Below, piece after piece: positions 4,741 through 53,769 of a DNA stretch of 64,000 nt. The stretch lies in NCBI GenBank assembly GCA_041645325.1, contig JBAZQI010000001.1:8945-72944 (forward strand), given 5' to 3'. The notes beneath the pieces were generated by a model. That model saw only the letters and a program-made list of their open reading frames with translations, did no database searches and was not told where the DNA came from. The stretch comes from an archaeon. Lineage in GTDB: Archaea; Iainarchaeota; Iainarchaeia; Iainarchaeales; GCA-2688035. Position numbers and translations under genes: made by a program. Each line of letters opens with the position of its first letter. Positions within the stretch are counted from its first letter, which is position 1.

Positions 4741-4856
4741 AGCCTTTTGCCGTGGGCAAAAGCCTTGGGAAAAAGCTTCGCAAAAAAACAGGCAAAGCCA
4801 CCGCACCTGCGAAGCAAACCAATTAAATACATTCCAGCTCAAAATTCATTATTCGT

Positions 4857-5071
4857 GCCGGCGTGGCTGAGCTCGGTTGAAGGTGCTCCGCTCGAAAAGG
4901 CCTTTTTTCCTGCTGGAAAAAAGCCTTGGGAAAACCCAAATTGCTGATGCAATTTGAGGCCTTTTCTTAGAAAGAAAAGCCCTGGGAAAAGAAAGCAATG
5001 CTGATGCATTGCTAAACGCGAGGAACGGAGTAGGTCGAAAGGCCTCACAGGTTCAAATCCTGTCGCCGGCG
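4857..5071 (+). tRNA. tRNA-Ser(CGA), class II, with a ~128-nt intron at 37/38 (4897-5024)
   Basis: Acceptor GCCGGCG/CGCCGGC. D-arm GCT-GAGCTCGGTTGAA-GGT. Anticodon stem CTCCG(4886-90)/CGGAG(5026-30), loop CTCGAA|intron|A. Variable arm GGTC-GAAA-GGCC. T-arm ACAGG-TTCAAAT-CCTGT. Discriminator G. No encoded CCA. Confidence 0.6.
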
Positions 5072-5072
5072 A

Positions 5073-8757: not shown

Positions 8758-9534
8758 TTACCTGGTGTTCATGTTGATGTTCCCAAATCTTCTGTTTCTT
8801 TCATCGATGTTTGATATTGCTGCATTTAGCGCTCTCGTTTTCGCACGGTGTTGAATGTAAGGCTTTAACGAATTAAGCAATTCAACAAGGTAAAATTTTT
8901 TGCTTATTACCAAACTCCAGTAATCTCCATTGTGCACGTATCCTTCGCGGGTAACATATCCTTTCCTTGCACCAAGACACAACTTTCTGCATTTTATCCC
9001 GAATTTTGGAAGTGTTTCAAGTATTTTTTCTAATAATGCTTTGTCATAATTTCCCAAAGCATAAACTGCCTGCCCTTTGGAAATGCCAATGTGCCCCTCT
9101 GCGTCTGTAAATCCCGCTAAAAAGGAGAAGAAAACATCTTCTTTTTGGAAGATCCAATCTGGGGCAACTTTACTTAATAAGAAGCTAAAACTTAAGGGGA
9201 GACCAACTCCGATACTTTTGGCTCCTCGTTTGTTTTTCTTTGAGATCCAAAGTGTAGAATACTTTTGGAACATGCTTTGAATCAGTTGCAGTTGTTCTTC
9301 TTTCGTTGTGCCGCATTCAATTGAGATTGTTTCACTATTTTTACCGCCTGTTCTTGCTCTCAAATCACCTATCCTAAAGCCAATTAGGTAAGCCTTTTCC
9401 AACAAATTGCCGCTAAAATCCTTCCGAGGATAAATCATTTGAGCACCCGCAGGGGTTCTTGTTTTTATCCCGTACTCTATCAATTTCTGTGCACAGTGCT
9501 TCTTGAAAATCCATATAGCTTTTCTATTTCCCAA
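8758..9534 (-). pseudogene. LAGLIDADG homing endonuclease domain (two motifs), 3' part of a frameshifted HTHx4-LAGLIDADG gene
   Basis: LIGFRIGDLRAR and LAGFTDAEGHIGISKG motifs. Its first residues (KKHCAQKLIEYGIKTR) complete the fourth HTH repeat of the upstream ORF in another frame. Confidence 0.7.
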
Positions 9535-10151
9535 CTGGAAAGCCTTTTCTTGCCGTAGAGTTCCAGCAGGGTTTCTTTACTTGGCACATTTTGATTTGGG
9601 CTTCTGGGCAGTCTTGCCTTGATTCCAAACTGCTTAAGCCTTTTCCAGATAGTAGCTTGACAGCAGTTGTATTTCTCAGCTATTTCAAAGGTTGTCAAAC
9701 CCTGTTTTATGTAAAGTTCAATTAGTTCCTTTTTGGTTATTTTTACAAAGCGGCCGTTTGAAGGCTTGGTCTTTATTTTATATTCCCTAAGCCTGTTGAG
9801 AATTGTAGTCATTTTGCAGTCAAACACTTTGGCTATTTCGCTTGGGGCAAGTTTTCTCTTTTCGTATAATTCAATCAAGTCCTCTTTTGGGATTTTTATC
9901 TTCTTTTTCTTTACAAAAAGTTTCACTGCTTCAGCAGTTGTTCTGGGCTTAATGCCATAAAATTTCAGCCAGTAGCAGATTGAGCCGGCGGTTCGGTCAA
10001 AAAGTTTCCCTATTTCTGATGTAGGACGTTTCTGCCTAGTGTACAACTCTTCCAACACTTCTTTCGAAATTTCAGCTTTCACTCTCCCACCGCACAAAAT
10101 ACGGTTTTGCCGTTTAAAATCGCTTTGAAAGAGCAGGTTTCCGCTAATCAC
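9480..10151 (-). pseudogene. four tandem ~45-aa helix-turn-helix repeats, 5' part of the frameshifted homing-endonuclease gene
   Basis: Repeats KE(V/D)L(E/I)ELY..(K/R)....EI.K......TI..RLK.(Y/F)GIK(P/T/A)R appear 4 times. GTG start overlaps the stop of a 34-codon upstream ORF (GTGA). Confidence 0.6.
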
Positions 10152-13600: not shown

Positions 13601-15577
13601 AGCTATGGAAAGGAAATGAAAATTCCGCGATATTTGGATAACGAGCGGCTTGCTTATTTGGCCGGCTTGGCTTTGGGTGACGGCAGCCTGTATGAGGCCG
13701 ATAGAAGTGCGTCTTTGAGGATTTTCAGCGCTTCACCGCAGCTTTTGCAGGAAGTTGACAACATTGCCCTGGATTTGTTTGGCTTGGAAGCTGAGAAGAT
13801 TGATGATGGAGTCAGGGTTCCTGCCAGGAGAATAAAATTCAGGGCTGTTTGTGAGCTTTTGAAGGCATTTGGCCTGGATAAAAGGAAAGGCAAAATAAGA
13901 ATTTCGCATCTTGCCTCGGAAATGCCTAACAATATTCTTTCAAAGCTCTTGCAGGGCTTGTTTGACACCGACGGCTGGGTTTGCAGTGGCAAAGACAGTC
14001 ACTGCATTGGCATGACAACGATTAGCAGGGATTTGGCGCAAAGCGTGCAGCTTTCTTTGCTAAAATTCGGCATCAGAAGCAAATTAAGGGAAAGAAAGAA
14101 AGCCGGCGTGCTTGCCGTTGGCAGAAAAATCTCTGTCACAAGCAGGCACAATCAGTATTGCATTGAAATAATGGGCAAAGAAAGCGTTGGGCTGTTCAAA
14201 GAGCACATCGGATTCAACCTTGCGCGAAAAAAAGAGAAATTGCAGGAACTTGCAACAAGCGTTCCAAAAGGCAACACAAACATTGATGTTGTTCCGCAAA
14301 TTCAAAGCCTGCTGAAAGCGGAGAAAGCAGAGTGGATTTACAGCAGTGGCAGGTCAAACATTTCAAAGGAAAAGCTGCAAAGGCTTGCAGGCGAGCAAGC
14401 ACTTGGCAATTCATTGTTGAAGCAATTGGCGGAATCTGATGTGATGTGGGAGCAAGTTGCGGAAAAGGTTTGCATAGAGTCGGCATACCCTTTTGTTTAT
14501 GATTTCTCGGTTGAAAAAAACCATAATTTTGTTGCAAACGGAATTTTTGTGCACAACACTGCATCTGCAGTCAAGGACGATTTTGGCGAGGGCGGCTGGA
14601 CATTGAAGGCTGGTGCGCTTGTTTTGGCCAGCGGCGGGGTTTGCATGGTGGATGAGCTTGACAAGATGGAGGCAGAGGACAGGAGCGCAATGCACGAGGC
14701 AATGGAACAGGGCATGATTTCAATAGCAAAGGCTGGCATTGTCACAAGGTTCAAGTCCGACACAAGCATCTTGGCCGCGGCAAACCCAAAGATGTCAAGG
14801 TTTGAGCCCTACCAGCCTTTCATTGAGCAGATTAATTTGCCGGCTTCGTTGATTTCAAGGTTTGACCTTTTCTTCATGATAAAGGACGTTTTGGACAAGA
14901 CAAAGGACGAGGCAATCACGGCGCACATCCTCAAAACGCACAAGGGCGGGGAAATGATTTCACAGTACAAGCAAAAGGGCAGGGTCATGCTGAAACAAGA
15001 CCAGGATGACATTGACCTTATTTCCTCGCCGCCGATACTGCCGGAATTGCTGGGAAAATACATTTCCTATGCAAGGCAAAACGTTTTCCCGATAATGAGC
15101 AAGGAGGCAATACAGCTCATTGGTGATTTTTACATCGGGCTGAGGGACATTGGGCGAAAAGAGGGAAGCTATGCGGCAACCCACAGGCAGCTTGAGGGCC
15201 TTGTAAGGCTTTCAGAGGCAAGCGCAAGGGTGCGCTTAAGCGACATTGCGGAAAAAGAGGACGCTGAAAGGGCAATAAGGCTTGTGAAGGCTTCTTTGAG
15301 CGATGTTGTCACAGACCCTGAAACAGGCAAGATTGATTATGACATCATTATGACCGGGCAGACTCACACCCAAGTTACGAACATGCGCAAAATCCTCACC
15401 ATCCTGAGGGAAAAGGCGAAAGAGCAGGACAATGTGCCGTTGCAGGATGTGCTCAACGAAGCTTCTGTGCAGGGAATTGACGCGGAAAGGGCGCGTGACC
15501 TCATAGCAAAGCTCGAAAAAAACGGCGAGCTCTACAGGCCAAGGCACAATTTCCTCAAGCCGACGAGAAACGAGTAA
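10691..15577 (+). CDS. mcm: MCM replicative helicase precursor carrying two inteins (mature about 724 aa)
   Basis: N-terminal OB/zinc (CRHCGN..CECRH). Walker A GDPG|intein|TGKSQLL. Walker B/arginine-finger region GALVLASGGVCMVDELDKM after the second intein. C-terminal wHTH. Confidence 0.9.
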   Translation: MALEEDADDESDFSPDFSAKAGKAGAKQISPDEGSESPYVSKFLEFFEANYKKELERLVENYPDKRSLEVDFRLLEQFDIELADAILDSPDLLLEAAKDAIEQIEVPALEIEIFSPHVRFFNIPKEHEPLVRDISAAQLGKFIAVEGVVRQITTVLPKLKVAVWKCRHCGNTYEKVQDDQQLKMPSFCECRHRDFDLVPEQSEFIDSQRVEIQEPLERLKGNEQASTLQVYIADDLVNRISAGDKTRFTGVLRLAVPDKKKTVYGRYLEAFHLEETQREFLDVEISPEEEKEIKDLASSPDIYETLIKSIAPAIYGHEKVKESIILQLFGGVKKNLPGNQTVRGNIHVLLVGDPGCLVADERIVLGNGAIEKIGSIGSRHLEEINLQVLTGQGGAKRDTATVFHYYKSQPVIEIVTESGKSIKGTPNHPLLCISKENSRVARNWKRLDEFREGDKVAVVTGIPCTITRYIETGFNQLPPIGGSKFKGSLPEKVTPELASFLGYMVGDGWVRNYETAFVVADNEKELLEPLLKMCENLFAIKSSVVRRKLEGRKVWLNYASIYSKSISQNLLFLREKRVPNPILKSGNKVVASFLKWLFTADGCVFNNGRGRRAVSFKAKNIELLRDLQVLLLRFGIHGRITGNSLQIRRGRDIIKFAKKIGFASKKKRATLKKLAEEAKSFAGFNSQRSEKIVKIIQHEPEDVFDIEVPGSHRFIANGVISHNTGKSQLLQAANTIAPKSIYTAGKTTSGVGLCIAPDSLVLNGNGFKRIEDFVEENFCNEKAFEEIPGAWSNIFDGKSLSLDNGLKAEEGKISKIWRLKAPEKMFRVKTRLGKELELTPHTSLVRLKEGNVGWVEAQEISEGDFIACARKLPEGGRKNIPAIGIIAHDKNVRIKDNVAVQLKEITDGLMAKYGSLQEIAKSIGKSRNTLYSIRNKKFYHGISLKNFVELGKEAGFSLEALSGCVSTIFISYGKEMKIPRYLDNERLAYLAGLALGDGSLYEADRSASLRIFSASPQLLQEVDNIALDLFGLEAEKIDDGVRVPARRIKFRAVCELLKAFGLDKRKGKIRISHLASEMPNNILSKLLQGLFDTDGWVCSGKDSHCIGMTTISRDLAQSVQLSLLKFGIRSKLRERKKAGVLAVGRKISVTSRHNQYCIEIMGKESVGLFKEHIGFNLARKKEKLQELATSVPKGNTNIDVVPQIQSLLKAEKAEWIYSSGRSNISKEKLQRLAGEQALGNSLLKQLAESDVMWEQVAEKVCIESAYPFVYDFSVEKNHNFVANGIFVHNTASAVKDDFGEGGWTLKAGALVLASGGVCMVDELDKMEAEDRSAMHEAMEQGMISIAKAGIVTRFKSDTSILAAANPKMSRFEPYQPFIEQINLPASLISRFDLFFMIKDVLDKTKDEAITAHILKTHKGGEMISQYKQKGRVMLKQDQDDIDLISSPPILPELLGKYISYARQNVFPIMSKEAIQLIGDFYIGLRDIGRKEGSYAATHRQLEGLVRLSEASARVRLSDIAEKEDAERAIRLVKASLSDVVTDPETGKIDYDIIMTGQTHTQVTNMRKILTILREKAKEQDNVPLQDVLNEASVQGIDAERARDLIAKLEKNGELYRPRHNFLKPTRNE
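11756..12859 (+). mobile_element. intein 1 (368 aa) inserted in the MCM P-loop, with LAGLIDADG homing-endonuclease domain
   Basis: Begins with Cys directly after GDPG and ends ...VISHN followed by T. Internal motifs LGYMVGDGWV and LKWLFTADGCV. Confidence 0.85.
12950..14557 (+). mobile_element. intein 2 (536 aa) in MCM AAA+ core, with LAGLIDADG domain
   Basis: Begins CIAPDSLVL... and ends ...GIFVHN followed by T. Motifs LAGLALGDGSL and LQGLFDTDGWV. Confidence 0.85.
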
Positions 15578-30825: not shown

Positions 30826-30942
30826 AAGCCTTTTTGCTTCGGCAAACCTTAGAGATGCTTTGGCATCTCTTACGGTTTCTGAACCTTACAGGTTCAGAAA
30901 AAGCCTTGGGAAAAAAACGCGCCTGTTGGCGCTAAGGCTTTT
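30826..30942 (+). repeat. full-length copy (~115 bp) of AAGCCTTGGGAAAA hairpin-module element
   Basis: aagcctttttgcttcggc-aaaccttagagatgctttggcatctcttacgg-tttctgaaccttacaggttcagaaa-aagccttgggaaaaaaacgcgcctgttggcgctaaggcttttt. About 88% identical to the reverse complement of 36455-36576. Confidence 0.75.
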
Positions 30943-35901: not shown

Positions 35902-36303
35902 TCAGCTTCCTTTTTTCCTGACTACCTTTACCTGGTCGCCCCAGCGCACGTACTCCACCTCAACGCCTGAGGCAAGGCCCTGGATGTCAGCCGGCTTTTT
36001 GACGTCAAAGGTCTCATAGGAGGTCAAATCCATTATCTGCGCAATGTCGCCCATTACGGCAACGACCTGTGCACTACCCTTGACCATTATCGGAACCTCG
36101 GCATCCATGCCGGTTGACTTCAAAAGGCCGCGTTTGTTTCCCAAAAAAACGTCTATGGCCACGATCCTTGCCTTTGCAGAACCGTGCTTTCCCGGCTTTG
36201 ACTTGTCGGCTGTCTTGACCTGGCAGACAAAACCGTCAATAAGAACATAGCTGCCTGGTTTCAGGCTTCCTATATTGGTAAACTTCTTTTCCCCTTCAGT
36301 CAA
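35902..36303 (-). CDS. eif5a: translation initiation factor 5A (aIF5A)
   Basis: Hypusine loop TGKHGSAKA and SH3-like plus OB domains. Confidence 0.9.
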   Translation of the reverse strand: MTEGEKKFTNIGSLKPGSYVLIDGFVCQVKTADKSKPGKHGSAKARIVAIDVFLGNKRGLLKSTGMDAEVPIMVKGSAQVVAVMGDIAQIMDLTSYETFDVKKPADIQGLASGVEVEYVRWGDQVKVVRKKGS

Positions 36304-36353: not shown

Positions 36354-36434
36354 AGCCGCCACAGCCGGCTGGTCTGAGTGCCATCTTCGCGCCTTTGTGG
36401 CGCTCGATGCCACAGGCTCGTTGTTGCTCGCCAA
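36354..36434 (+). repeat. family-2 repeat copy A (AGCCGCCACAGCCGGCTGGT ... GGCTCGTTGTTGCTCGCCAA)
   Basis: Conserved 5' and 3' ends shared with copies at 39356, 39755 and 53277. The central hairpin is gcgcc-tttgt-ggcgc. Confidence 0.6.
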
Positions 36435-36454: not shown

Positions 36455-36576
36455 CCGGGCTTTGCGCCATCAGGCGCATTTTTCCCAAGGCTTTTTCTGA
36501 ACCGGTAAGGTTCAGAAACCGTAAGAGATGCCAAAGCATCTCTAAGGTTTTCCGCAGAAAAAAGGCTTTGCGCCCT
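36455..36576 (-). repeat. full-length copy of AAGCCTTGGGAAAA element (reverse orientation)
   Basis: Reverse complement aligns module by module with 30826-30942, including the agagatgc/gcatctct and tctgaacc/ggttcaga hairpins. Confidence 0.75.
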
Positions 36577-36747
36577 TGCAACCTGTTTTGCAGTCTGCCC
36601 TTTTTTGGCTGCTTTTTTGCCGGTTCCTGCCTTTTGCCCGGCTGCAATGCTTTTAAGAAACCTTTTTGTTATTTATTTGATTATTCAATTATATATTCCT
36701 TGTTGGTGTTTCCCTTGGTTTTGGATGATGTAAAGAAAAGGTTTGAC

Positions 36748-37185
36748 ATGGTTATCAAGAATGAGAAGCGGAAAAACATAGCTGTTTTTGTCGACGGCCC
36801 GAACATCCTGCGCAAGGAGCTTGGCATTAACCTGGTTGACATAAAAAAGGTTTTGGAAAAATACGGCAACCTTAAGATTGCCAGGGTTTTCCTGAACCAG
36901 TTTGCCTCAAACAAGCTTGTTGAGGCTGTTGTCAACGAGGGATTTGAGACAGTGCTGACAGTGGGCGACATTGACGTTGCAATGGCCTGCGATGCTACTG
37001 AGGCAATTTTCAACAAGGCAATCCATTCCATTGCGTTTGTGACGCGTGACTCTGACTTTTTGCCTGCAATGATGAAGGCAAAGCGCTATGGCAAGCAGAC
37101 AATTGCGGTTATGGCTGAAGAGGCCTCGGCGGCAGCCTTAAAAAACACTGCCGATGTAGTAATTGTGCTGGGTGCATCAAAATGA
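36748..37185 (+). CDS. NYN/LabA-like (PIN-like) domain protein
   Basis: IAVFVDGPNI...TRDSDF motifs typical of the NYN fold. Confidence 0.6.
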   Translation: MVIKNEKRKNIAVFVDGPNILRKELGINLVDIKKVLEKYGNLKIARVFLNQFASNKLVEAVVNEGFETVLTVGDIDVAMACDATEAIFNKAIHSIAFVTRDSDFLPAMMKAKRYGKQTIAVMAEEASAAALKNTADVVIVLGASK

Positions 37186-39355: not shown

Positions 39356-39439
39356 AGCCGACACGTCCGGCTGGTACGAGCAAGGGCCCTATTTCGCTCC
39401 CTTTTGGTCGCTCAATAGGGCGGCTTCGCTGGCAAGTCC
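39356..39439 (+). repeat. family-2 repeat copy D (diverged 3' end)
   Basis: agccgacacgtccggctggtacgag ... central hairpin ccctatt/aataggg. Lies 4 nt after the Sm stop. Confidence 0.55.
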
Positions 39440-39541
39440 TTCTTCTTATGGGAAAAAAAACTTTGGAAAAAACCCGTGTTCAATGTCACGAGTTCACTTC
39501 GTTCGCATTTTTAACCTTTTCTTGAAACTATTTTTCATTAA

Positions 39542-39613
39542 GGGCCCTTGGTCTAGTGGTATGATGCTCGGTTGGCAATCGGGAGGTCGCGGGTTCAATT
39601 CCCGCAGGGTCCA
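39542..39613 (+). tRNA. tRNA-Ala(GGC)
   Basis: Acceptor GGGCCCT/AGGGTCC with the G3:U70 alanine identity pair. Anticodon loop TTGGCAA. T-arm GCGGG-TTCAATT-CCCGC. Discriminator A. Confidence 0.85.
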
Positions 39614-39639
39614 AAACCCATTGAGCCCAAGCGAAATGG

Positions 39640-39732
39640 GTTCTCCTGTGGCAGTTGTAATTTTCCAAAGGCTTTTGTGCAACAGCCTTTAACAAAGGCT
39701 GGCGAAAAATGCTTCGCGAGCACAAAAGGCTT
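39640..39732. repeat. AAGGCTTTT-family hairpin modules inside the insert downstream of tRNA-Ala
   Basis: ttccaaaggcttttgtgcaacagcctttaacaaaggctggcgaaaaatgcttcgcgagcacaaaaggctttt. Confidence 0.55.
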
Positions 39733-39754
39733 TTCAATTCCCGCAGGGTCCAAA
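39733..39754 (+). repeat. 22-bp duplicate of the tRNA-Ala 3' end (ttcaattcccgcagggtccaaa)
   Basis: Identical to 39594-39615. Lies 117 bp downstream of the tRNA. Confidence 0.75.
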
Positions 39755-39823
39755 GCCGCCACTGCCGGCTGGTCAGGGTACGATTGCCTTCGGCAATCCT
39801 ACAGGCTCGCTATTGCTCGCCAT
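39755..39823 (+). repeat. family-2 repeat copy B
   Basis: gccgccactgccggctggtcagg...gattgcc-ttc-ggcaatc...ggctcgctattgctcgcca. Confidence 0.6.
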
Positions 39824-45004: not shown

Positions 45005-45658
45005 ATGAATCTGCCGACGCGCGAACAATGCCTTGCATTGCTTGAAAAATACAATATTCCCAGGCACATTGTAAGGCACTCGCTTGCGGTTGAAAGGGTT
45101 GCGGTTTTTCTTGCAAAAAAATTCAACGAAGCAGGCATTCCAGTGGATGCCGGGCTTGTGAGCAGGGGCGCGCTCTTGCATGACATTGACAAGATTGAAA
45201 CCTTGAAAGAGGGCTTTGGGCACCTGCACGGCAAAATGGGCAGGGAAATCCTTGAAAAAGAGGGCTTTCCTGAAATCGGAAAAATTGCGGAGGCGCATCA
45301 TTTGGAAAGGGTGCTTTCTCTGAAGCCTTTTTTCCCGCGGGAAAAAAGCCTTGGGAAAAGTGCGCCTGTTGGCGCAAAGCCTTTTTTGCTTGGGCAAAAA
45401 AGCCTTGGGAAAAGTGCGCCTGTTGGCGCAAAGCCTTTTGACTGCTGGGAGGAAAAGATTGTTTATTATGCCGACAAGCGCGTCAACCACGACAAAATTG
45501 TTTCCCTTGACGAGCGTTTTGATTATTTGCTCAAAAGATATGGCATTGAAAAGGGCATTCGCCGCACATTCCTGCATTGCAAACCTCTTGTGGAAAAGCT
45601 TGAAAAGGAGATTTTCTCAAAAATAGATGCAGGTCCTGAATTGGAGGGATTGTCTTGA
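45005..45658 (+). CDS. HD-domain phosphohydrolase carrying an in-frame repeat-element insertion
   Basis: H..HD..K metal motifs (RHSLAVE, LLHDIDK, YYADKRVNHD). Residues encoded by 45323-45440 (KSLGKSAPVGAKPF, twice) derive from the AAGCCTTGGGAAAA repeat. Confidence 0.7.
   Translation: MNLPTREQCLALLEKYNIPRHIVRHSLAVERVAVFLAKKFNEAGIPVDAGLVSRGALLHDIDKIETLKEGFGHLHGKMGREILEKEGFPEIGKIAEAHHLERVLSLKPFFPREKSLGKSAPVGAKPFLLGQKSLGKSAPVGAKPFDCWEEKIVYYADKRVNHDKIVSLDERFDYLLKRYGIEKGIRRTFLHCKPLVEKLEKEIFSKIDAGPELEGLS
45323..45440 (+). repeat. two tandem partial copies of AAGCCTTGGGAAAA-GTGCGCCTGTTGGCGCAAAGCCTTTT module, in-frame within the HD gene
   Basis: Direct sequence repeat with ttttcccgcgggaaaa and gcgcctgttggcgc palindromes. 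Confidence 0.75.
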
Positions 45659-52881: not shown

Positions 52882-53208
52882 TCACTCCAGCTGCTTCAGC
52901 CTTACAAAACAGTTTTCGCAGATGAATTTTTCGTTGAAGTCAATGCCGTTCATGCCGCCTGTGCCGCAAAGGATGCAGATTTTTCCGTGCTGTGGCAGTG
53001 AAAAGTTTTCCGCCCAGGCCCTCAAAAGCTCCCATGAAACCCACTTTGGCATGAACAATTCGCGAAAAACGCTTTTGTCGTTCTTTTGAATGCGCTCAAA
53101 CTGGCTTGGCATGACTTTCCTGTGGAGGCCTTTCAGGAAATTCACCTTTTCCAAATCGCCTTTTCTCATCAAATCATTTACCGTCTGTTCAAAAAATTCA
53201 TTTGCCAT
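52882..53208 (-). CDS. hypothetical protein with C-terminal zinc ribbon
   Basis: CILCGTGG...CENCF. Confidence 0.45.
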   Translation of the reverse strand: MANEFFEQTVNDLMRKGDLEKVNFLKGLHRKVMPSQFERIQKNDKSVFRELFMPKWVSWELLRAWAENFSLPQHGKICILCGTGGMNGIDFNEKFICENCFVRLKQLE

Positions 53209-53235
53209 AAAACCACTTCATTCCCATTTTATCAC

Positions 53236-53276
53236 TTCAGGTAAATAACCTTTTTTCCATTCTTAATCTTTGCCCT
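53236..53276 (+). repeat. 41-bp direct repeat DR1, a duplicate of the 3' end (last 14 codons + stop) of gene 53353..53769
   Basis: ttcaggtaaataaccttttttccattcttaatctttgccct versus 53357-53397 tttaggtaaatgactttttttccattcttaatctttgccct. Both reverse complements encode RAKIKNGKKVIYLK followed by a stop. Confidence 0.75.
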
Positions 53277-53350
53277 AGCCGTCACGTCCGGCTGGTACGG
53301 GCACAACCTCGCTTGGGCTCGGTTGAGCCGGCTCGCTGCTGCTCGCACTT
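53277..53350 (+). repeat. family-2 repeat copy C, bracketed by the 41-bp direct repeats
   Basis: agccgtcacgtccggctggtacggg...ggctcggttgagcc...ggctcgctgctgctcgca. Confidence 0.6.
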
Positions 53351-53352
53351 AA

Positions 53353-53769
53353 TCATTTTAGGTAAATGACTTTTTTTCCATTCTTAATCTTTGCCCTTTT
53401 TGCGTATTTTTCCAGGTAGTGCACCGTGCTCTTTGAAATGCCTGTAACGCGCTCCACTTCGCGCAGGCTCTGGTAGTCCTTTCTCATTTCAAGCGCCTGC
53501 TGCATTTTCTCCAAAGGCATTGAAATCGGCCTTCCCGGCCTTGCCACTGTTTCCAAAACAACGCCTTTTTGCCAGAGCAATGCAACGCTTTTCTTCGGCA
53601 TTCTTGCAATGCAGCTTTTGCTTGCGCTCGCAGTTTCAAGCATTGCGCATTTTTTCAGGATTCCTTCAAGCAATTCCTTTTTTACCGGCCTGACAAAATG
53701 CAGTTTTGCCGCTTCCTTCGGAATATCCCTGGCGTCCATTCCCGGCAAAACAGAAAAAATCATGCACAA
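53353..53769 (-). CDS. HTH DNA-binding protein (resolvase/sigma-70 region 4-like HTH at C-terminus)
   Basis: SLREVERVTGISKSTVHYLEKY helix-turn-helix. Confidence 0.5.
   Translation of the reverse strand: MCMIFSVLPGMDARDIPKEAAKLHFVRPVKKELLEGILKKCAMLETASASKSCIARMPKKSVALLWQKGVVLETVARPGRPISMPLEKMQQALEMRKDYQSLREVERVTGISKSTVHYLEKYAKRAKIKNGKKVIYLK

Follow-up and report, generated by a model that had tools for sequence, protein, structure and literature searches.

The window, i.e. the whole stretch of 64,000 nucleotides of archaeal DNA that was analysed, contains four copies (A to D) of a short repeat, here called family 2, of which the first three lie among archaeal housekeeping genes including those for aIF5A, proteasome, exosome, SBDS and L15e. 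Copy A occupies the divergent spacer between the aIF5A gene (35902-36303, - strand) and a NYN-domain gene (36715-37185, + strand), and is followed by nested hairpins of another repeat family (family 1). Copy B starts 3 nt past the stop codon of the LSM (Sm) gene (39352), 186 nt upstream of a tRNA-Ala gene, and copy C lies downstream of the same tRNA; the LSM protein is encoded on a metagenomic contig of 96.9 kb. Copy D separates two copies of the 3' end of a gene for a 136-aa protein (53353-53763, - strand) and is antisense to both neighbouring genes, the second encoding a 108-aa protein (52882-53208, - strand). Start-to-start distances between the first three copies are 3002 and 398 nt, and the fourth follows about 13.5 kb further on. 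The features are as follows.

36354-36433, + strand: copy A, with head 36354-36378, A-type hairpin 36379-36413 and tail AGGCTCGTTGTTGCTCGCCA 36414-36433
39356-39429, + strand: copy B, with head 39356-39380 and B-type hairpin 39381-39429, closed by GCAAG/CTTCGC
39476-39507, + strand: remnant of an older A-type unit, hairpin 3' half and tail (GTGTTCAATGTCAC GAGTTCACTTCGTTCGCA)
39542-39613: tRNA-Ala
39594-39614, + strand: first copy of the tRNA-Ala target duplication, 20-21 nt, TTCAATTCCCGCAGGGTCCA(A), equal to tRNA-Ala nt 54-73
39615-39732, - strand: insert of about 118 nt between tRNA-Ala and copy C, a family-1 hairpin and then a degenerate family-2 unit with B-type hairpin
39733-39753, + strand: second copy of the tRNA-Ala 3'-end duplication, directly abutting the head of copy C
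39754-39822, + strand: copy C, with head 39754-39778, C-type hairpin (GTA CGATTGCC TTCG GGCAATC C TAC) and tail to 39822
53222-53276, + strand: copy 1 of the copy D target duplication, originally the 3' end of the 136-aa gene, which has been displaced and at present is only upstream region of the 108-aa gene
53277-53348, + strand: copy D, with head 53277-53301, followed by hairpin and tail GGCTCGCTGCTGCTCGCAC to 53348
53349-53397, + strand: copy 2 of the copy D target duplication, which at present serves as 3' end of the 136-aa gene

The head motif AGCCGNCACNNCCGGCTGGT, which comprises the 20 nt shared by the window copies out of a full head of 25 nt, occurs exactly four times in the window, always on the + strand (36354, 39356, 39754 and 53277), against 0.04 occurrences expected; none of 100 shuffles reached four. 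This amounts to roughly one family-2 unit per 16 kb, in addition to an even more abundant second hairpin family. An earlier reading made from the sequence alone had listed four same-strand copies, which the motif count bears out, except that its third start (39755) was off by one. The conserved ends it described are also there, with the head motif in all four copies and the tail GGCTCGYTNNTGCTCGC exact in three (at 36415, 39804 and 53330); the copy with a divergent 3' end is, however, copy B at 39356 and not copy D, and its sequence GGCTTCGC is a recurrent second tail type. Copies B, C and D lie where that reading had placed them, i.e. after the LSM gene, on either side of tRNA-Ala and between duplicated gene 3' ends, but its designation of the 136-aa gene as an HTH gene found no confirmation from Pfam. 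The scan that was run returned no Pfam match for this gene; many of its homologues carry a precomputed match to PF28505.

The hairpins that had been listed for the middle of each copy can indeed be folded in all four. As claimed, the middle varies while its structure is preserved; it is not, however, different in every copy, but belongs to one of a few recurrent hairpin types common to the copies of other genomes. Folded singly, the copies were only mildly more stable than shuffled sequences, with z-scores of -0.1 to -1.4 (+ strand) and -1.7 to -3.1 (- strand). The structure of the family is based on covariation across about 65 related copies, as the four window copies alone are insufficient for this.

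Further copies were collected via the head motif, so that the constant presence of a head in copies outside the window is partly circular. A 17-base pattern scanned against one genome per species yielded mostly chance matches in GC-rich bacteria, with 9 of 115 loci being real; these belong to two MAGs of Iainarchaeum, to an uncultured archaeon and to four contigs of low GC content that carry a Chloroflexi/Chloroflexota bin label, probably in error. With a longer pattern, 62 metagenome loci were obtained. The resulting collection holds 68 copies in 52 archaeal-type loci (designated by L numbers below) with a total of 420 kb, and both orientations occur on one contig in L055, L154 and L177. Homologues of the gene adjoining copy D were labelled Diapherotrites or Iainarchaeum, and as far as sampled, the family is confined to DPANN archaea of the Diapherotrites/Iainarchaeota type.

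The repeats of this family are non-coding and modular, with short units of about 60-100 nt. Each unit is built from a near-invariant head of 25 nt, at least one long hairpin and an optional tail. In the head, nt 1-5 (AGCCG) pair with nt 13-17 (CGGCT) to form a first helix of 5 bp, for which compensated variants were found as CGCCG/CGGCG (three times) and TGCGG/CCGCG (once). A second helix is formed by nt 9-11 and nt 21-23; as nt 9-11 lie within the loop of the first helix, the topology is that of a pseudoknot. In 70 of the 80 heads, the complement of nt 10-11, two positions that were free in the search pattern, is found at nt 21-22, with four dinucleotide flavours (GT/AC, GC/GC, TG/CA and AG/CT). 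Over 28 distinct heads, 93.3% of the cells are paired, compared to 82% in shuffles and 27-54% with slid partners, and double-sided changes occur in 25 cells versus 6.7 in shuffles (0/500); the unpaired head bases are almost invariant. The hairpin type of copy B, folded with RNAalifold, shows the GCAAG/CTTCGC closure and compensatory changes in 6 pairs. For the main hairpin including the head, 92.9% of the cells are paired, with 34 double changes versus 12 in shuffles (0/500). Kinship among copies inflates the shuffle-based values, and sturdier evidence comes from the slid-partner control and from the occurrence of four dinucleotide flavours. Covariation is significant for head and main hairpin, in agreement with the structure-preserving centre that had been proposed. 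The strand that would act as RNA is indicated differently by two measures: G-U versus A-C counts of 13 versus 5 (from two overlapping alignments) lean towards the + strand, whereas the folding energy favours the - strand.

Where a tail is present, it is of the type GGCTCGYTNNTGCTCGCC (GCTCGC-rich) or GGCTTCGC (GCTTCGC), often followed by 3-19 A/T-rich bases. Head-to-tail fusions, which keep the head end, occur as well, such as a 25-nt head standing alone before a full unit in L114 and units without their first 8 nt fused behind a tail in L123 and L166, and family-1 hairpins (A(G)GCCTTTT...AAAAGCCYTGGGAAA) can nest in family-2 loops. The copy number of tandem hairpin units differs between two near-identical assemblies.

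Searches against known RNA families returned nothing for these units. At the gathering threshold, Rfam 15 identified only two tRNAs in the whole window, and permissive scans of all four copies gave sub-threshold chance matches (E >= 0.005) whose bit scores fell well short of the cut-offs. Rfam also contains the known self-cleaving ribozymes (HDV-like, hatchet, pistol, twister), none of which matched, and the topology of the head differs from the HDV-like one. None of the tRNA-like, C/D-box, kink-turn or bulge-helix-bulge motifs fits the unit alignments, as judged by eye; the boxes of C/D-box sRNAs (RUGAUGA, CUGA) are not conserved in the unit alignment, CUGA being found in one of the four head flavours. 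A CRISPR array was rejected in view of the irregular spacing (3002 nt, 398 nt, about 13.5 kb) and of the housekeeping genes between copies. No terminal inverted repeats were found, as the head (AGCCGNCAC...) does not match the reverse complement of the tail (TGGCGAGCA...), and the two ends share only a short direct similarity (GCCGCCA versus GCTCGCCA).

Target duplications were searched for by alignment of the 60 nt that precede each head with the sequence 45-500 nt downstream. About 15 of 60 copies showed a direct repeat that ends, within a few ambiguous bases, at base 1 of the head, with scores of 12-37, whereas the controls averaged 8.5 and had their 95th percentile at 12. Clean duplications of 19-23 nt were found in L029, L007, L107, L140, L164, L151, L174 and L051, the overall range being 15-55 nt, and the duplication at copy D measures 45-55 nt at 87% identity. 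What is duplicated is the target, which may be the end of a gene, a junction with overlapping stop and start codons or the terminal 20 nt of a tRNA, and the insert between the two target copies is 60-230 nt in total. The far end of duplication-flanked copies varies, lying after the hairpin, within the tail, after the full tail or 3-19 nt beyond it. The head-side junction is precise, the far end is variable, and terminal inverted repeats are lacking.

Several of these insertions have an unoccupied counterpart in relatives. At the locus orthologous to that of copy D, L184 (74% protein identity) has a single gene end with the next gene 23 nt on, and the junction in L185 is likewise free of an element. 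The tRNA-Cys gene of L164 is followed by two successive units and that of L140 by one, each unit in turn preceding a copy of tRNA nt 54-73; in L147, unrelated sequence follows the tRNA-Cys (empty site). In L175, tRNA-Ala is followed directly by a T and the head of copy C, and the 118-nt insert of the window is absent. Two apparent duplications turned out to be of a different kind: that of 60 nt in L133, judged by eye, represents two paralogous tRNA-Lys genes (UUU and CUU), and that of 21 nt at the family-1 unit at 45377 is part of a tandem array of a 57-nt unit. As a separate observation, the gene end that is duplicated at copy D carries an element-free tandem duplication of 32 nt in L183.

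Whether copies co-occur with 3'-end duplications had been put forward as a check; they do so in other genomes as well, and the duplications are target-site duplications. The sequence-only reading had noticed 3'-end duplication without interpreting it, yet this is the key point: since insertion has duplicated the 3' ends of genes and tRNAs and relatives show empty sites, the elements are best read as mobile interspersed repeats, and we consider it probable that the four copies are members of a mobile family that inserts with long target duplications. About two thirds of the copies have no duplication, among them all eight sense copies in tRNA trailers. We attribute this to the decay of unconstrained duplications with age; copies of this kind could also reflect a second way of spreading.

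An alternative origin, as a by-product of repair or replication, would have staggered breaks or stalled forks at gene ends mended by fill-in or template switching, with abundant hairpin DNA being copied as filler into the short tandem duplications that result. It could draw on the L183 duplication, on the spread of duplication lengths from 15 to 55 nt and on the differing number of tandem hairpins in near-identical assemblies. Capture of filler would not, however, place the junction at base 1 of the head in about 15 independent events, and it accounts neither for the C at position -4 nor for the spacing of 1-4 nt from tRNAs described below, so that we regard it as improbable.

In front of the head, position -4 is a C in 47 of 63 distinct flanks (background 22%), position -3 is almost never T, and A or T predominates at positions -2 and -1. 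This constitutes a weak target consensus, C-N-W-W, directly before the head; as positions -4 to -1 lie inside the duplication, they are part of the target. Mutual information between flank positions -12 to -1 and head positions was nil, and pairing of flank and head in the manner of guide and target was rejected on this ground. The "guide-like variable region" of the sequence-only reading likewise did not hold up: the variable part is a self-complementary stem taken from a few subfamilies, and the flanks show no covariation.

Among the 31 tRNAs called in the loci with introns allowed, 12 have a head 1-4 nt from an end of the tRNA, eight in trailers in sense and four in leaders in antisense orientation; the far end of the unit is never found at 1-4 nt from a tRNA end. 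In L140, the tRNA-Cys gene contains an insertion of 158 nt at position 37/38 that consists of a complete antisense unit and a family-1 hairpin, which is lacking in the tRNA-Cys orthologues of L147 and L164. Family-1 hairpins occupy many tRNA introns. Copies survive only where they are harmless, i.e. at gene junctions, in the first bases beyond tRNA ends and in a tRNA intron; gene junctions tolerate the insertion because the duplication restores both gene ends.

Some copies are old. Copies B and C have orthologues in L175, although the LSM gene 3' ends of the two genomes, read by eye, differ at roughly a quarter of their bases. The orthologue of copy B starts directly after the LSM stop codon and that of copy C 1 nt after the discriminator base of tRNA-Ala. 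Between the copy C orthologues, the head is identical and the stem has changed from GTA/TAC to GAG/CTC; in the head of the copy B orthologue, A1-T17 has become C-G. At the B site, the window and L175 carry different hairpin types, and the window retains the 3' half of the older type at 39476-39507, in a remnant that is homologous to the L175 unit after the LSM stop codon and abuts the conserved TATA-like box of tRNA-Ala. In the coding part, all differences between the two duplication copies are synonymous and in third positions, both at copy D (4/4) and in L142 (3/3); an old insertion followed by drift, with purifying selection acting on the copy that serves the gene, would leave such a pattern. 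Across genera, some copies have remained at an unchanged position, with compensatory changes keeping their stems.

This conservation could be taken to mean that the repeats are primarily host-functional structured RNAs, acting as small-RNA genes or cis-elements, with their spread being secondary. Such an RNA might be a leader or trailer linked to a tRNA and freed by RNase Z or RNase P, a signal for processing or termination, or a platform to which proteins bind. Covariation of both head helices and the main hairpin, the nearly invariant unpaired head bases, the retention of B and C, with compensatory changes, at the same sites in the diverged L175 and the heads positioned 1-4 nt from the ends of 12 tRNAs would all fit. 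Against it, units are found in both orientations relative to flanking genes and tRNAs, even antisense within a tRNA intron, so that there is no consistent host-transcribed strand; no promoter is conserved upstream, because the flanks are target sequence; hairpin types have been swapped between orthologous sites; and insertion and empty-site polymorphisms with target duplications exist in a family that matches nothing in Rfam. We therefore hold a primary host function to be rather unlikely. It is in any case compatible with mobility, and disputes only which of the two properties comes first.

With the copies read as mobile repeats, an enzyme for their mobilisation was looked for. No reverse transcriptase, transposase or integrase is encoded in the 20 kb around copies A to C or by the ten proteins around copy D, none was seen next to any other copy, and a crude scan for RT motifs over about 0.5 Mb of collected loci returned nothing. 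Likewise, neither a Cas1 gene nor a recurrent multi-copy family of transposase-like ORFs was seen in the collected loci. A second target copy at 0.4-9 kb downstream of a head was not found for any copy, except for one unresolved match in L142. The only recurrent ORFs of mobile type in the loci encode LAGLIDADG endonuclease-like proteins beside tRNAs.

The layout of the copies does not fit site-specific recombination sites, either of the integron attC type or as integrase att sites with a variable spacer; a recombination site with a variable spacer had been the second possibility named by the sequence-only reading. Conserved ends with a foldable variable centre give a superficial likeness to attC, and duplicated tRNA or gene 3' ends are also encountered at att sites of integrative elements. 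The ends are, however, neither inverted copies of each other nor inverse-complementary core sites, and the helices are internal to the head and the central hairpin. Between the copies, there are no cassettes but conserved housekeeping genes in synteny, with the NYN, DUF2226, ParA-like and LSM genes, among others, in the same arrangement in L175 and L051; the insert between target copies is only 60-230 nt, and no integrase gene was seen near the copies. This explanation is extremely improbable.

DNA-level transposition, by an unrecognised transposase or a Cas1-like integrase that cuts with a stagger of about 20 bp and dispenses with an RNA intermediate, is a further alternative. The clean duplications are tight at 19-23 bp, which suggests a fixed molecular ruler, and a weak target consensus is present at one junction. 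Integrases of the Cas1 family, which prefer tRNA 3' ends, generate long duplications (14-15 bp for casposons, the entire repeat for CRISPR), and IS1634 produces long, variable ones. In our elements, however, terminal inverted repeats are missing, the ends being unrelated save for their short direct similarity, and the far end is variable, with the tail sometimes absent, which is difficult to reconcile with an enzyme that binds both ends; nor do the collected loci contain a transposase or Cas1 gene. For these reasons, we think DNA transposition rather unlikely as well. We know of no transposase family that matches the signature of duplications of about 20 bp, one-ended recognition and positions 1-4 nt from tRNA ends. 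Miniature inverted-repeat elements (MITEs) were rejected since inverted termini are absent and the duplications of 15-55 bp are not short and fixed at 2-10 bp, and elements of the IS200/IS605 type (PATEs, REPINs) because a target duplication is present and flank and head share no mutual information.

Returning to mobility with long target duplications as the preferred reading, the combination of variable-length duplications, one precise and one variable end and absent inverted repeats is that of SINE-like elements. Mobilisation would then occur in trans and be one-ended, starting at the head. In such a scheme, a nick made after C-N-W-W would be extended by copying an element strand, the simplest template being a transcript that carries the head's complement at its 3' end; the duplication would result from another nick at a distance of about two helical turns. 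The simplest analogue known is target-primed reverse transcription of an RNA with a structurally recognised 3' end. Copies that abut tRNAs would be plausible sources, transcribed together with the tRNA and trimmed at the head end by RNase Z or RNase P; alternatively, the spacing of 1-4 nt might arise from an insertion machinery that targets the foot of the tRNA gene. We propose a retroposon-like copying step of this kind only tentatively, as a possibility on the doubtful side. In a wider proposition, the repeats would be the first SINE-like mobile elements of archaea, promoter-less structured RNAs that ride on tRNA transcription and are cut precisely at the head end by RNase Z or RNase P. Their copying into DNA at nicks would duplicate about 20 bp, and by landing at position 37/38 they would create or enlarge tRNA introns. 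Taken as a whole, this is unlikely, and it is put forward as a speculation.

In practice, the repeats explain the duplicated 3' ends of genes and tRNAs, the unusually long tRNA introns and the assembly variation in these MAGs, and the head motif allows mis-binned contigs to be recognised sharply. Mobile DNA is usually described as scarce in DPANN archaea, whose genomes are among the smallest and most compact of any cells. If the process were RNA-based, retroposition would extend to archaea, and mobile elements would be linked to tRNA processing and to the gain of tRNA introns; if it were DNA-based, it would point to an undescribed integrase with a two-turn stagger. Should the retroposon-like reading be true, it would show in concrete terms how archaea gain introns and how the spacers of DPANN genomes come to be filled with hairpins. 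By class, we assign the family to the non-autonomous structured interspersed repeats, with an insertion signature that may reflect a new mechanism.

In the literature that was searched, nothing relevant on DPANN repeats with long duplications was found, and the family thus appears to be previously undescribed; the nearest case is a MITE-like C/D-box sRNA element of Pyrobaculum calidifontis, which has terminal inverted repeats, C/D boxes, conserved flanks and a variable centre (PMC6009581). With archaeal MITEs, our family shares the non-autonomous, short nature and, in the Pyrobaculum case, also the conserved flanks around a variable centre, whereas the inverted termini and the C/D boxes of the latter are absent here. 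The attC sites of integrons resemble it in that conserved ends enclose a variable centre able to fold as a single-strand hairpin, but require inverse core sites (R''/L'' versus L'/R'), are located at the 3' end of mobile cassettes beside an integrase and lack a target duplication, none of which applies to our elements. Elements of the IS200/IS605 type (PATEs, REPINs) are similarly asymmetric, with hairpins, no inverted termini and insertion 3' of a short left-flank motif; they generate no duplication and depend on a Y1 HUH transposase or RAYT, whereas young copies of our family are flanked by duplications of about 20 bp. Casposons and CRISPR systems share the unusually long duplications and the preference for tRNA or gene 3' ends, but casposons have inverted termini with duplications of 14-15 bp, CRISPR has a fixed repeat, and no Cas1 was seen in our loci. 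The transposing tRNA introns of Thermoproteales, in which related short sequences are found in introns of different tRNA genes, find a parallel in the family-1 hairpins in many tRNA introns and in the family-2 unit in a tRNA-Cys intron that orthologues lack; they are, however, not reported outside tRNA genes or with target duplications, whereas most copies here are intergenic.

By function and layout, the nearest counterparts are the bacterial modular intergenic repeats (BOX, REP/BIME) and the eukaryotic SINEs. The BOX elements of Streptococcus pneumoniae and the REP/BIME, ERIC and Correia-type elements are short structured intergenic repeats that occur in multiple copies and are often co-transcribed with their neighbours; BOX is assembled from modules, boxA-boxB(n)-boxC, with conserved ends and a variable number of internal hairpins. 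Our family resembles these in being short, non-coding, structured, intergenic and modular, with many copies per small genome, and differs in being archaeal, in its unrelated sequence, in the pseudoknot-type covariation of its head, in duplications of about 20 bp instead of 0-2 bp, in the absence of inverted termini, in its exact placement beside tRNA ends and in the occurrence of units in tRNA introns. To our knowledge, SINE-type retroposition has never been demonstrated in archaea. SINEs differ from the elements described here in their internal promoter and their tRNA-derived sequence, neither of which is present, and in their RNA intermediate, which here would be a putative one; no partner reverse transcriptase or endonuclease was found in the loci. 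The likeness to SINEs lies in the lack of inverted repeats, the combination of one precise with one variable end, the variable-length duplications of about 15-20 bp, the weak consensus at the nick site, the A/T-rich extensions at one end, the head-to-tail composites and the association with tRNA genes.

The same genomes carry a second hairpin repeat, family 1, of the form A(G)GCCTTTT...AAAAGCCYTGGGAAA, which is commoner than the head-hairpin-tail mobile repeat, family 2. In the window, 13 sites match its core exactly; when up to two mismatches are allowed the count is 37, against 10 expected. The exact matches are at the following positions.

2594, 4760, 4921, 4977, 17361, 17402, 17443, 30901, 45346, 45400; family-1 core
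32803, 32903, 36481; minus strand; family-1 core

Family-1 hairpins are frequently tandem or nested, and in several metagenome loci a family-1 repeat lies immediately upstream of family-2 heads, the near-invariant 25-nt starts of those units. A 111-nt composite of family-1 hairpins nested in one another occurs in two inverted copies of 92% identity, at 36460-36568 (+) and 30826-30936 (-), with no obvious target duplication seen. At 45322-45440, a 57-nt unit consisting of a family-1 hairpin and a GCGCCTGTTGGCGC hairpin is arranged in tandem. The window differs by one such unit from the ENA contig L178 (16217-16279), to which it is otherwise 99.96% identical, and this indicates that the copy number of the array changed recently.

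Family-1 hairpins also occupy tRNA introns. In the window, tRNA-Ser(CGA) (4856-5072) was called solely when a 120-nt intron was permitted, which is composed of two family-1 hairpins and two small hairpins; further introns filled with family 1, of 47-102 nt, were found in tRNA-Arg, Ser, His and Ile (loci L118, L137, L144, L177). In locus L140 (reverse strand, about 9450-9650), tRNA-Cys is interrupted at position 37/38 by 158 nt in which a family-1 hairpin is combined with a family-2 unit in antisense; its orthologues in L147 (3774-3844) and L164 (603-673) are without intron. The L140 intron may have been gained or enlarged through mobile units of the two families. Free-standing LAGLIDADG endonuclease-like ORFs adjoin tRNA genes in four loci (L131, L144, L146, L157), and a weak LAGLIDADG-like match at 13640-14137 of the window lies within a 1628-aa ORF, where it may represent an intein; a link between LAGLIDADG ORFs and the repeats is not established.

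The TATA-like box of tRNA-Ala, GCATTTTTAAC, is located directly 3' of the tail of the upstream unit (window 39500-39541; L175 2795-2836) and is kept in both genomes. Unit tails might, in their A/T-rich extensions, provide promoters or overlap with them.

In L183 (1880-1945), the orthologue of the 136-aa gene neighbouring copy D, a family-2 unit of the window, has an imperfect tandem repeat of its own end behind it, 32 nt long, with no element between the two. This duplication could be the footprint of an excision or of an insertion that was aborted, or it could have arisen independently. One orthologous gene junction is occupied by a unit in three genomes (L029, L044, L127) and another in four (L107, L135, L151, L163), L163 having a second head after the second target copy. 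The hairpin types differ among the units at these common junctions, which suggests either that the junctions are hot spots of insertion or that the insertions are old and have had their inner modules exchanged.

Four element-bearing contigs were binned as bacterial.

L024, L044; bin 'Chloroflexi AB_1215_Bin_59'
L055, L107; bin 'Chloroflexota CSMAG_1825'

Their GC content is 0.35-0.39, and the setting of the element is the usual one for these archaeal loci, with units that abut tRNA genes and with insertion junctions also present in the metagenome loci. In all probability these contigs are archaeal DNA that was wrongly assigned to bacterial MAGs.
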